Assembly: GCA_030583685.1 (NCBI GenBank) | Contig: CP129470.1 | Location: 745,292-809,291 of the forward strand | Direction: 5' to 3' | Length of the DNA stretch: 64,000 bases | Source: Candidatus Dojkabacteria bacterium | Lineage (GTDB): Bacteria; Patescibacteriota; Dojkabacteria; GCA-002793355 | Shown: in pieces, positions 7,930 through 51,403 of the stretch | Layout: the number at the start of each line of letters is the position of its first letter | Position numbering within the stretch: the first letter of the stretch is position 1 | The notes under the pieces: generated by a model | What the model saw: only the letters and a program-made list of their open reading frames with translations | What the model was told of the DNA's origin: nothing | The model's database searches: none | Translations under genes and position numbers: made by a program

Positions 7930-8165
7930 GAAGGATGCATGAGCAGGAGCTCTTTTTCATTGAAGAAGAGAGGAAAGTCCCGCCTCGAGTAGGTCACGAG
8001 CGAGAGCTCGGTAGGAGGAATCTTACGGATAGGGTCACAGAAATAGTCTCAGAAATGAGGTGAAATGCCAAATTGGCTACAGATAACCCCTGACATCGAG
8101 CAAGTGTAAACGCTGAGAGAAATTCCTGCATAAAACAGAAGCGGGCTTACGGTGCATCCAGCTCA
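7930..8165 (+). ncRNA. rnpB: RNase P RNA (bacterial type A-like, compact)
   Basis: Contains universally conserved P4 strands GAGGAAAGTCCCGCC (5') and ACAGAAGCGGGCTTAC (3') with compensatory changes maintaining P4 pairing; 5' AAGGATGCA pairs with 3' TGCATCC (P1); no ORF; about 235 nt. Confidence 0.65.
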
Positions 8166-28568: not shown

Positions 28569-28599
28569 GAGAGTTCTGTAAAAATTATAAGCACCACTA

Positions 28600-28672
28600 T
28601 CGGAGTGGCGGGACTCGAACCCACGACCTCACGCACCCCATGCGTGCATTCTACCAACTGAACTACACTCCG
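28600..28672 (-). tRNA. tRNA-Pro (anticodon GGG)
   Basis: Reverse complement CGGAGTGTAGTTCAGTTGGTAGAATGCACGCATGGGGTGCGTG...GGTTCGAGTCCCGCCACTCCGA; anticodon loop ATGGGGT. Confidence 0.8.
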
Positions 28673-28715
28673 ATGGTGAATTATATCGCACTAAAGACTT
28701 GTTTCCAATATACCC

Positions 28716-49776: not shown

Positions 49777-49785
49777 TGCTATAAT
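49777..49785 (+). promoter_or_regulatory. extended -10 promoter element (TGcTATAAT) for proS leader
   Basis: TGnTATAAT about 190 nt upstream of proS start; defines leader 5' end near 49792. Confidence 0.35.
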
Positions 49786-49791
49786 AAAGAA

Positions 49792-49978
49792 GAGTCACGC
49801 GAAGAACAGGAATAGTAGCTTTCGAGCGAACCCGCCTGAGAGCGTTTGAGAAACCGAAATGCTAACTCAACTGCCAGAGCAGGACAACTCTGAAAATGAG
49901 CCGATATTCATCGGAAAGGTAAGGTGGTACCACGAGCAACTCGTCCATACCAAATAATAAGTTTTTTATTACTTGGTC
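49792..49978 (+). promoter_or_regulatory. putative T-box riboswitch leader (Pro-specific) upstream of proS
   Basis: Conserved T-box sequence AAGGTGGTACCACGAG (49920-49935) matching consensus AANNNGGGTGGNACCGCG; UGGU bulge would pair with the NCCA end of a tRNA with discriminator A (tRNA-Pro has A); Pro codons CCC/CCG occur in upstream stem region; followed by hairpin ACGAGcaaCTCGT. Confidence 0.5.
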
Positions 49979-51403
49979 ATGGAAAAAATTCCAAACATTT
50001 CTGAAAATTTTGCTGATTGGTATCAGTTCGTCACGCTAAAAACGGGACTTGCGGATTACGGTCCAGTGAAAGGAACAATGATTCATAGACCATATGGGTT
50101 TGCATTATGGAAGCAAGTGCAGAAAGTGCTTGGTCAAATGATTGAAGCAGATGGGGTAGAAGATGTATATTTTCCTTTATTTATTCCGTATTCTTTTCTG
50201 GCAGCAGAAAAAGAGCATGTTGAAGGGTTTGCCCCTGAAGTTGCAATGATTACCGAAGCAGGCGGTGAAAAGCTGGAAGAACCTTTAGTTATTCGCCCAA
50301 CGTCAGAGACAATAATGTACAAGACGTTTCCTAACTGGATTCAATCTTACCGAGATCTCCCTCTAAAAATTAACCAATGGTGCAACATTGTTCGCTGGGA
50401 AAAAAGAACCGTAATGTATATGAGAACGTCAGAATTCCTTTGGCAGGAAGGGCATACTGCACACGCAACTCGTGATGGAGCAGTAGAAGATGTCCTGTCA
50501 GCAGCAACCCGTTATGAAAAATTTTTACGAGAATATATGGCAATTCCGGGTTATAAGGGGTACAAGACCACAGGTGAAAAGTTTGCAGGTGCAGATTTTA
50601 CTGTCACCATTGAATCTTTAGTAAAGAACAAAAAGGCTTTACAAATCTGTACATCACATTTACTTGGTCAGAATTTTGCGAAAGCGTTTGGAATTACCTT
50701 TCTTGACGAAAAAAATGAATCTCAGCATGTATGGCAAACAAGCTGGGGTTTTAGTACTCGTACACTGGGAGGCATGATAGGCATTCATGGCGATGAAAAG
50801 GGCCTCGTCCTTCCTCCTCGTATGGCACCCGTGCAAATAGTCATAATTCCTATTGTTAAATCAGAAGAGGACCGTATTGCGATTGCAAACTACTGTGAGG
50901 GAATTGAAAAAATGCTGAAAAACGTTGGTATTAGAACGAAAACAGATTGGGGGAACGAAACTCCAGGGTGGAAATTTAATCAATGGGAACTGAAAGGTGT
51001 ACCACTGAGAATTGAAATTGGGATTCGAGAGGTTGAGCAGAAACAATTAACGGTTGCCACGCGTTTAGGGAATAAGTCAGTAATAGCACTTTATTCTGAA
51101 GTTTACAAAGAATTGAATGCCCTGCTTGACGAGATTCAGGCATTACTTTTATCTCAGGCGGAGCAGCTTTTGTTTGAAAACACCGTAGACGTCGCGTCTG
51201 AAGCAGAATTAGTTGCTGCAATGGAATCTGGAAAGGCAATGTACCGAGTTTTCTTTAAAGATGACACGGAACGAGCAAAAACATTGCAAGAAAAGTACAA
51301 AATCACCCCAAGAGTCATTCCTTTTGATACGATTGATCAAAAAGGTCCGGACTTTATGACAGGTGAGGAAGGTACGCCGACCATCTTTGCAAAAGCATAT
51401 TAA
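49979..51403 (+). CDS. proS: prolyl-tRNA synthetase (compact archaeal/eukaryote-like type)
   Basis: Class II motifs, VIRPTSETIMY, about 475 aa without bacterial INS editing domain; start set at ATG 49979. Confidence 0.85.
   Translation: MEKIPNISENFADWYQFVTLKTGLADYGPVKGTMIHRPYGFALWKQVQKVLGQMIEADGVEDVYFPLFIPYSFLAAEKEHVEGFAPEVAMITEAGGEKLEEPLVIRPTSETIMYKTFPNWIQSYRDLPLKINQWCNIVRWEKRTVMYMRTSEFLWQEGHTAHATRDGAVEDVLSAATRYEKFLREYMAIPGYKGYKTTGEKFAGADFTVTIESLVKNKKALQICTSHLLGQNFAKAFGITFLDEKNESQHVWQTSWGFSTRTLGGMIGIHGDEKGLVLPPRMAPVQIVIIPIVKSEEDRIAIANYCEGIEKMLKNVGIRTKTDWGNETPGWKFNQWELKGVPLRIEIGIREVEQKQLTVATRLGNKSVIALYSEVYKELNALLDEIQALLLSQAEQLLFENTVDVASEAELVAAMESGKAMYRVFFKDDTERAKTLQEKYKITPRVIPFDTIDQKGPDFMTGEEGTPTIFAKAY

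Follow-up and report, generated by a model that had tools for sequence, protein, structure and literature searches.

A putative T-box riboswitch with a truncated Stem I upstream of proS in Candidatus Dojkabacteria

Introduction

T-boxes are best known as regulators in Firmicutes and Actinobacteria, and occur scattered in other Terrabacteria. The classical T-boxes that respond to proline act on transcription and include those of proBA and proI in Bacillus subtilis, as well as those of proS in other Firmicutes.

Class II T-boxes are taken here as they are defined in two reviews (PMC7583486; PMC7778990). Examples are the translational T-boxes with a short or ultrashort Stem I upstream of ileS in the Actinobacteria Mycobacterium smegmatis, M. 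tuberculosis, and Nocardia farcinica (Sherwood et al. 2015, as summarized in PMC7583486 and PMC7778990). T-boxes of this class, found mainly on actinobacterial ileS, are without the double T-loop that binds the tRNA elbow, rely on Stem II and a pseudoknot, and act on translation (PMC7583486). In TBDB, the class II model was run only in Actinobacteria, alongside which there are class I matches with truncated stems (PMC7778990).

In the limited literature that was searched, no report of a T-box in the Candidate Phyla Radiation (CPR), Patescibacteria, or Saccharibacteria was found, which is not proof of absence, and none of the papers on riboswitches and CPR describes a native riboswitch. Here, a leader upstream of the prolyl-tRNA synthetase (ProRS) gene proS is described from Candidatus Dojkabacteria, a CPR/Patescibacteria lineage. 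The leader lies in a 64-kb stretch of DNA that was analyzed as a whole (hereafter the window). It is very probably a functional T-box riboswitch that is specific for tRNA-Pro and controls the single downstream gene proS. Its identity as a T-box and its specificity for proline are well supported by the sequence comparisons presented below.

The proS Locus and Its Relatives

The product of proS (Table 1) matches, at 100% identity, a Candidatus Dojkabacteria MAG protein that is named proline--tRNA ligase, and features the Pfam domains PF00587, PF03129, and PF09180. It is encoded by the single ProRS gene of this Dojkabacteria subclade. Relatives of the window share the gene order rpsB-tsf-frr-rseP-proS-rpsU-ybeY-pth-hpf, and seven of them (L081, L082, L083, L086, L089, L090, and L213) bear a leader within a gap of 220-280 nt on the 5′ side of proS. 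The ProRS proteins of these seven are 70-82% identical, and the N-terminus MEKIPNI is kept among relatives. Seven leaders from the syntenic rseP-proS loci, including that of the window, can be aligned, and L213 brings the total to eight.

The initial annotation of this DNA reported a promoter (TGCTATAAT) followed by a leader of about 190 nt, and both are found. The TGnTATAAT box shows no variation among the aligned leaders, L213 included, and its spacing to Stem I is constant. Transcription is predicted to start at ~49791-49793, about 7 nt on the 3′ side of the −10 box, which gives a leader of ~187 nt from ~49792 to the ATG at 49979. Similar leaders on other aminoacyl-tRNA synthetase genes, a point that was also raised initially, are not found within the window, where gltX is the sole other gene of this kind. 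A T-box on gltX is ruled out by an upstream space of only ~40 nt and by the absence of a covariance model match.

Table 1. Coordinates of the proS leader and associated features in the window.
Feature	Position	Strand	Sequence, basis, or remark
Extended −10 promoter, TGnTATAAT type	49777-49785	+	TGCTATAAT
T-box aptamer and discriminator (Stem I, Stem II, IIA/B pseudoknot, Stem III, antiterminator)	49792-49952	+	Rfam RF00230, model R1, covariation
Truncated Stem I	49797-49845	+	Helices covary; K-turn GA dinucleotides invariant
Stem I base helix	49797-49800/49842-49845	+	Covariation
K-turn strands	GAAGAA 49801-49806, AGA 49839-49841	+	Invariant GA dinucleotides
Stem I inner helix CAGG/CCUG	49807-49810/49835-49838	+	Covariation
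Specifier-loop 5′ side AAUAGUA	49811-49817	+	
Stem I cap GCU-UUCG-AGC, 3 bp	49818-49827	+	Stands in place of distal Stem I
S-turn GAA; specifier CCC (proline); purine G	49828-49830; 49831-49833; 49834	+	Rfam alignment
Stem II UUGAG/CUCAA	49846-49850/49866-49870 (element 49846-49870)	+	Covariation
Stem IIA CUG/CAG	49871-49873/49880-49882	+	
IIB pseudoknot, CAGAG with CUCUG	49875-49879 with 49888-49892 (IIA/B region 49871-49892)	+	Covariation
Stem III CCGAU/AUCGG	49901-49905/49910-49914 (element 49894-49917)	+	Covariation; purine flanks AAAUGAG, AAA
Antiterminator/antisequestrator	49918-49951	+	A1, T-box bulge, A2
Helix A1 GGUAAGG/CCAUACC	49918-49924/49945-49951	+	Compensatory and wobble changes
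T-box bulge UGGUACC, 7 nt	49925-49931 (UGGU 49925-49928)	+	Invariant
Helix A2 ACGAG/CUCGU	49932-49936/49940-49944	+	Hairpin ACGAG-CAA-CTCGT 49932-49944
Competing hairpin (candidate sequestrator)	49944-49983	+	Minimum-energy fold −13.6 kcal/mol
proS, putative regulated gene	49979-51403	+	Archaeal/eukaryote-type prolyl-tRNA synthetase, 474 aa
tRNA-Pro(GGG), predicted ligand	28599-28673	−	ARAGORN and Rfam

Match to the T-Box Family and Covariation

Support for a T-box leader on proS, as first proposed from the letters of the sequence, comes from an Rfam match that spans the model, from strong covariation among eight homologous leaders, and from a cognate tRNA in the window. The covariance model scan that was suggested along with this proposal gives a match that is complete in extent and low in score. 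Under permissive filters, RF00230 matches 49793-49951 across model positions 1-219, that is, over its whole length, with 52.7 bits. The E-value of this match is 6e-11 locally, and 1.1e-08 when both strands of the 64-kb window are taken as the search space. The gathering score of RF00230 is 93 bits, so the leader falls short of it, and curated thresholds give only five tRNAs in the window. The score lies below the cutoff because 53 distal Stem I positions of the model are replaced by 2 nt. No other Rfam family gives a credible match to the leader in the permissive scan. The six relatives that were first collected all match RF00230 as well, at 39-66 bits and likewise under the cutoff.

The initial annotation had named a sub-threshold score and the absence of distal Stem I elements as grounds for rejecting a T-box. 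Both are literally what is found here, yet this standard is too strict, because the described class II T-boxes with a short Stem I are also without distal elements (PMC7583486; PMC7778990).

A covariance model, R1, was built from the seven leaders without L213. It scores the window leader, of which it is the family model, at 166.5 bits, and L213, which lies outside the training set, at 79.8 bits (E = 4e-22).

Covariation was measured on a model-based alignment of the seven leaders, to which the pseudoknot was added by hand. In this alignment pairing holds in 94.1% of the cells, vs. 36-45% once the partners are offset by 1-3 columns. Changes on both sides occur in 24 of the 39 pairs, and the observed values are reached by none of 500 shuffles. 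Three pseudoknot cells that are unpaired result from a register shift of one column in L089. RNAalifold on a plain MAFFT alignment, which was not fitted to any model, recovers Stem I, its cap, Stem II, IIB, Stem III, A1, and A2, with compensatory changes in 22 of 36 pairs. Every helix of the leader shows covariation.

Stem I and the Specifier

At the base of Stem I, a K-turn (GA motif) is present at the sequence level, with the layout GC-GAA-GA…/…A-GA-GC and flanking helices that covary. Above it lies an S-turn specifier loop, AGUA/GAA, which holds a proline codon and a purine 5′ of proS (AAUAGUA … GAA-CCC-G at 49811-49834). The Rfam alignment puts the codon immediately 3′ of the S-turn GAA, which is also its place in canonical T-boxes. 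The specifier slot is CCC-G in five of the eight leaders and CCU-A in the other three, and all are proline codons. Two candidates for the specifier had been put forward in the initial annotation. The CCC noted near 49836 is retained, with its position corrected to 49831-49833, and the CCG (49901-49903) is ruled out by its position inside Stem III.

The distal platform of Stem I, with its AG bulge, distal loop, and interdigitated double T-loop motif, is absent from the window leader, and GCU-UUCG-AGC stands there instead. Caps in the relatives consist of 2-3 bp with a tetraloop or pentaloop, with three exceptions: that of L083 has 8 bp, and L086 and L213 carry longer inserts in which no T-loops can be recognized.

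Stem II, the Pseudoknot, and Stem III

All 5 pairs of Stem II change on both sides. Its 5′ side carries a conserved purine run (GAGAAA in the window, with GAGGAA and AAGGAA as variants), and its 3′ strand features (G)CUAA rather than the AGUA of a loop E; the GAA…CUAA motifs are conserved. The IIB pseudoknot covaries in 5 of 5 pairs even though it is absent from the alignment model and was added by hand. Its strand pairs are of eight kinds, namely CAGAG/CUCUG, AAGAG/CUCUU, UGGAG/CUCCA, UCAGA/UCUGA, AAGCA/UGCUU, CUAAG/CUUAG, CGGAG/CUUCG, and UUCAG/CUGAA.

Stem III with flanking purines is present (AAAUG-AG-[CCGAU…AUCGG]-AAA in the window), and the stem covaries in all leaders. Its variants are CCGA/UCGG, CCGAAG/CUUCGG, CUGGC/GCCAG, GGGC/GCCC, CUUGUUAU/AUAACAAG, CCGAG/CUCGG, and CUCGC/GCGAG. 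The flanks in the window are similar to the described RRRxG-Stem III-AA motif (PMC7583486). Across the leaders the flanks are purine-rich, with a motif that is not identical in every one.

The Antiterminator and Its Cognate tRNA

The T-box sequence AAGGTGGTACCACGAG lies at 49921-49936, in line with the initial reading of a T-box consensus with a UGGU bulge, and its 13-nt core, GGUGGUACCACGA, shows no variation across the eight leaders. The antiterminator has the layout of helix A1, a 7-nt bulge of the form UGGNACC, and helix A2, in which N is complementary to the discriminator of tRNA-Pro. The fit to an A discriminator that was noted at the outset also holds, as the window encodes a tRNA-Pro(GGG) with discriminator A and without an encoded CCA. 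The 3′ end of such a tRNA, ACCA, is the complement of UGGU, while the anticodon GGG pairs with CCC and, by wobble, with CCU.

The hairpin ACGAG-CAA-CTCGT was also seen correctly at first, but it forms helix A2 of the antiterminator and is not the sequestrator or terminator that it was suggested to be. A conserved G·U at the foot of helix A2 has been described as a steric sensor of the aminoacyl group (PMC7583486). This G·U is not found in the eight leaders, all of which have an A-U pair at this position (A49932-U49944 in the window) in which the uridine, the base said to clash with the aminoacyl group, is kept.

The Output Domain

Fold energies identify an alternative helix that excludes the antiterminator and is favored without tRNA, the hairpin at 49944-49983. 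Its outer pairing joins UCCAUACCAA with UUGGU-C-AUGGA, and its inner helix is AUAAUAAG/UUAUUAC. The start codon (49979-49981) is paired in this hairpin with CAU at 49946-49948. Since 8 nt (49944-49951) are common to the hairpin and to A1/A2, the two folds are mutually exclusive. In the seven leaders other than L213, forcing the antiterminator costs the ensemble 0.5-4.9 kcal/mol in stability relative to free folding, and in six of these seven it makes the start region modestly more accessible.

The complementarity behind this fold was examined with shuffled controls. The sequestrator of the window gives p = 0.026 in a shuffle control. A duplex-only test with RNAduplex is significant for the window and L089 only, and was replaced by a whole-fold test with linker shuffling. 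The linkers between the antiterminator and the start are 32-106 nt long and unalignable. In the whole-fold test, all eight minimum-energy folds pair CUCGUCC plus 7 nt with the region from −20 to +5 of the start over 4-10 bp, compared to a mean of 0.2-2.1 bp with shuffled linkers. The p-values range from 0.002 to 0.29 per sequence, and Fisher's combined value of 2.6e-07 is overstated since the eight sequences are related. L213 and L090 show no significance in this test.

The same tRNA-Pro T-box could also act by transcription attenuation in the classical style of Firmicutes, wherein the hairpin would be an intrinsic terminator and uncharged tRNA would lead to read-through. U-rich tails follow hairpins in L213 (AA and U8), L081 (U5), and L090 (UUAUUUGU), and the terminator-like hairpin of L213 begins on the 3′ strand of the antiterminator. 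A short Stem I is compatible with this output, since clean terminators are present in all of the sister metagenome leaders listed with a short Stem I, where …GACGAG is the partner of the same strand and U6-8 comes next. The nearest outside relative, the leader L175, is also of the terminator type.

Other features of the window and its relatives speak against attenuation. No U-tract stands on the 3′ side of the window hairpin, where AAAAAAUUCC is found, and the U6 run of the window sits in the loop. A U-tract after the competing helix is also absent in L089, L082, L083, and L086. The competing helix of all eight leaders stops at the start codon itself or 3-10 nt short of it. The Dojkabacteria leaders retain the pairing partner of the sister leaders, but the start codon stands where a U-tract would be, 3-10 nt downstream, or within the helix in the case of the window. 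The inner hairpins of most relatives do not overlap with the antiterminator, and tRNA binding therefore could not control them. Furthermore, no enrichment of terminator-like sites is seen across 40 kb of the window. Attenuation is accordingly considered rather unlikely as the output of this leader.

Upstream of many genes in the window, a TATAAT box stands 5-9 nt from the start codon, and strong Shine-Dalgarno sequences are rare. The proS start in the window has no recognizable canonical Shine-Dalgarno sequence. With many genes appearing leaderless and few strong Shine-Dalgarno sequences, occlusion of the start codon is a plausible block to initiation. With the AUG base-paired and no U-tract after the hairpin, translational sequestration would be the likeliest output in the window, a reading of the fold models that is held with moderate confidence.

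Proposed Mechanism

Transcription would begin just 3′ of the conserved TGnTATAAT box. The K-turn-based Stem I would then present CCC in the S-turn specifier loop, and would end in a 3-bp stub capped by UUCG in place of the usual long distal arm that stacks on the tRNA elbow. Stem II, with its purine string, and the IIA/B pseudoknot come next, as in the short-Stem-I T-boxes of Actinobacteria, and presumably clamp the codon-anticodon duplex, while Stem III and the antiterminator would test the 3′ end of the tRNA. When tRNA-Pro(GGG) is uncharged, its ACCA end may pair with the UGGU of the bulge and stabilize A1 and A2. When uncharged tRNA is lacking, A1/A2 would lose their 3′ strand to pairing with the translation start region (49944-49983), which would bury the AUG. 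As the AUG would be buried without uncharged tRNA, proS would be translated mainly when the charging of tRNA-Pro is low. In this scheme the binding of tRNA, the sensing of its charge, and an output in translation rather than transcription are all predicted from the folds and complementarities described above.

Comparison With Class II and Classical Proline T-Boxes

The Dojkabacteria leaders share several features with class II T-boxes. Their Stem I is cut short right above the specifier, without the elbow-binding double T-loop motif, and is followed by a Stem II with a purine string, a IIA/B pseudoknot, Stem III, and a UGGN bulge. In the window and most relatives, a competing helix also covers the translation start, without a U-tract terminator. 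The differences are considerable as well. The leaders pair proline with proS where class II pairs isoleucine with ileS, and the host belongs to a CPR/Patescibacteria lineage of ~40-50% GC instead of the Actinobacteria. Ultrashort metagenome leaders of the ileS type have their specifier in a terminal loop, unlike the internal S-turn loop (AGUA/GAA) with a 2-3 bp cap that is observed here. Unlike in class II, the helix in the window buries the AUG itself, without a Shine-Dalgarno sequence and among many leaderless-looking genes, and some Dojkabacteria relatives have terminator-like tails.

Classical proline T-boxes are represented in this comparison by L175, a Chloroflexia-like proS leader, and by L072 from Bacillus luti. 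The ProRS of L175 is nearest to Chloroflexia. Like the window leader, L175 has a proline specifier (CCC), controls proS, and features the same order of elements. The flanks of Stem I are nearly identical, with GAUCAGGAACAGUAG … CCCACCUGAGAGCG in L175 and GAACAGGAAUAGUAG … CCCGCCUGAGAGCG in the window. Leaders of the L175 type differ from that of the window by having distal elements on a long Stem I (236 nt vs. 161 nt) and a GC-rich terminator with U7. Outside the antiterminator, L175 is 60% identical to the window leader over 99 columns, and the other outside matches listed reach 49-55%. Leaders from the metagenome scan share the antiterminator core by construction, so that similarity there carries no meaning.

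In their sequence, the Dojkabacteria leaders look like a T-box of the L175 type from which the top of Stem I and the U-tract are missing. This suggests that they may descend from a classical proline T-box through deletion of the Stem I top, although the margin of L175 over the other matches is small.

Distribution

Among the Dojkabacteria and other CPR proS loci that were examined, the leader is restricted to the subclade in which ProRS is at least 70% identical. Four further clades (L084/L085, L087/L088, L211, and L212), with ProRS 58-65% identical, are syntenic as well but leave no gap between rseP and proS, which abut or overlap, and these gapless loci give no match to RF00230. A scan of metagenomes with the antiterminator core gives no further Dojkabacteria proS leader among the matches listed. 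R1 was also searched against a taxon-labeled panel of at least 80 distant ProRS loci, obtained from a ProRS-alignment scan that has no Dojkabacteria among the matches listed. Within this panel, the proS genes of the other CPR genomes (about nine) have no R1 match on their 5′ side, and the only matches of R1 among the loci listed are Bacillus luti and one Chloroflexia locus. One further locus, L138, was not accepted as CPR; its ProRS is nearest to Parcubacteria loci, but genes for the biosynthesis of proline and aromatic amino acids are present.

The element could also be a decaying relic, that is, an inherited or acquired T-box whose regulation has been lost and which is now a mere 5′ UTR. The loss of distal Stem I fits this explanation, as do the A-U pair at the foot of A2 in place of G·U and the absence from the four other Dojkabacteria-level clades examined, which makes the element dispensable in the group. 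Such decay is very improbable nonetheless, given that every functional element is kept, and all helices show compensatory changes, across eight genomes in which ProRS identity is only 70-82%, that the 13-nt T-box core is invariant, and that the specifier is always a proline codon. A naturally truncated Stem I is moreover functional in Actinobacteria (PMC7583486). It is barely conceivable that the leader is some other structured RNA with a chance resemblance, for example an autoregulatory leader that binds a protein or a leader-peptide attenuator with proline codons, for despite a Rfam score under the curated threshold the match covers the whole model (E = 1e-08), the pseudoknot, Stem III, and antiterminator covary in canonical order, and no other Rfam family matches credibly. 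Leader-peptide attenuation in particular is ruled out, as the open reading frames in the leaders are conserved in neither position nor length and contain only 0-3 prolines.

Implications

The unexpected host that was pointed out initially is confirmed, as the T-box is present in the genome of a Candidatus Dojkabacteria (CPR/Patescibacteria). What is new here is the taxonomic extension of T-boxes to a CPR lineage, a notable extension that comes with some variant features of a kind of regulator already known. A stronger claim is put forward only tentatively. The leaders may be the first described CPR lineage of T-boxes and a distinct sub-type, in which the S-turn specifier is kept and the elbow-binding arm is lost, and in which a terminator has turned into a start-codon sequestrator without a Shine-Dalgarno sequence in a largely leaderless genome. 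This sub-type would have been gained, or uniquely retained, in one Dojkabacteria subclade.

All eight leaders score under the Rfam cutoff, a gap through which annotation based on thresholds misses T-boxes with a short Stem I. R1 could be used to survey CPR genomes for them. The leaders also provide a natural series of Stem I forms, from an ultrashort cap to an 8-bp stem and longer inserts, as well as a natural series of output domains that runs from sequestrator-like to terminator-like. Both are useful for asking how T-boxes manage without contact to the elbow, and how terminators become sequestrators. In addition, its predicted response to tRNA would make the leader a native switch in a group for which genetic tools are sought (PMC11665869).

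If the proposed reading is true, an ultrasmall and probably host-dependent bacterium senses the charging of tRNA-Pro directly. The supply of amino acids would then still be monitored by at least one RNA sensor in the reduced genomes of this Dojkabacteria subclade.

Short T-box leaders with terminators

Transcriptional T-boxes have been generalised to need a long Stem I (PMC7583486). Four ileS leaders on metagenome contigs run contrary to this generalisation, as each features a strong terminator with U7 despite an ultrashort Stem I, whose 6-7 nt terminal loop displays AUC-A. Read from their sequences, these leaders are predicted to achieve transcriptional output without an elbow-binding arm.

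Short T-box leaders with terminators also precede proline genes on five further metagenome contigs: ornithine cyclodeaminase plus proS on one, proC on another, proB on two, and a tRNA-binding protein plus proS on the last. No proline codon is found at the specifier-aligned position of these five leaders, which reads GUC, GGC or GGA; immediately 3′ of this position is a conserved CCG. One of the contigs, L138, carries a second T-box upstream of an operon encoding chorismate mutase, a DAHP synthase-like protein, prephenate dehydrogenase and a hisC-like protein. Such biosynthetic content is unusual in CPR. The ProRS of L138 is nearest to Parcubacteria and Paceibacterota loci (~65%).

Variation at the proS locus in Dojkabacteria

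In the leader of the relative L086, Stem I and Stem II each hold longer inserts, ~40 nt and branched in the case of Stem I; this leader may show the truncated Stem I in an intermediate form. An additional ORF of 202 aa without Pfam hits sits between rseP and this leader. In the relative L082, the public gene call gives a ProRS of 493 aa (L082:2501-3982) whose start lies 57 nt too far upstream, within the T-box expression platform; the conserved proS start is the GTG at 2558. Within the coding region, a small hairpin (GGAA-AAAA-UUCC) lies at codons 1-5 of proS (MEKIP) in the window, and is predicted at the same place in every leader, in the window and in all relatives. This hairpin may merely reflect the conserved N-terminus.

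Coordinates of the features discussed
Feature	Location	Strand
Extra ORF	L086:1613-2221	
T-box leader	L086:2244-2453	
proS start hairpin	window 49981-49992	
ileS leader	L092:10041-10193	+
ileS leader	L174:1041-1193	-
ileS leader	L122:4403-4558	+
ileS leader	L121:6190-6338	+
Proline-gene leader	L138:8776-8924	-
Proline-gene leader	L136:6894-7071	-
Proline-gene leader	L171:858-1030	-
Proline-gene leader	L127:1972-2122	+
Proline-gene leader	L134:1000-1152	-
Second T-box	L138:5221-5366	-
RNase P RNA	window 7931-8165	+
Example starts with close TATAAT-like box	window 2464, 25396, 34401, 58253, 59855	+
Example starts with close TATAAT-like box	window 25369, 57302	-

RNase P RNA and start signals

The window also encodes a bacterial RNase P RNA (class A), found as a covariance-model match in which all 367 model positions are covered by only 235 nt. 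This RNA is a strongly reduced form; its match of 87.3 bits falls under the gathering score of 100 bits, and default annotation would overlook it.

In many long ORFs of the window, a TATAAT-like box ends ~5-9 nt upstream of the first start codon. An AGGAGG-type Shine-Dalgarno sequence is present in only about one third, even with start choice biased towards one. Together, the close boxes and scarce Shine-Dalgarno sequences suggest that leaderless or near-leaderless mRNAs are widespread in this Dojkabacteria genome.
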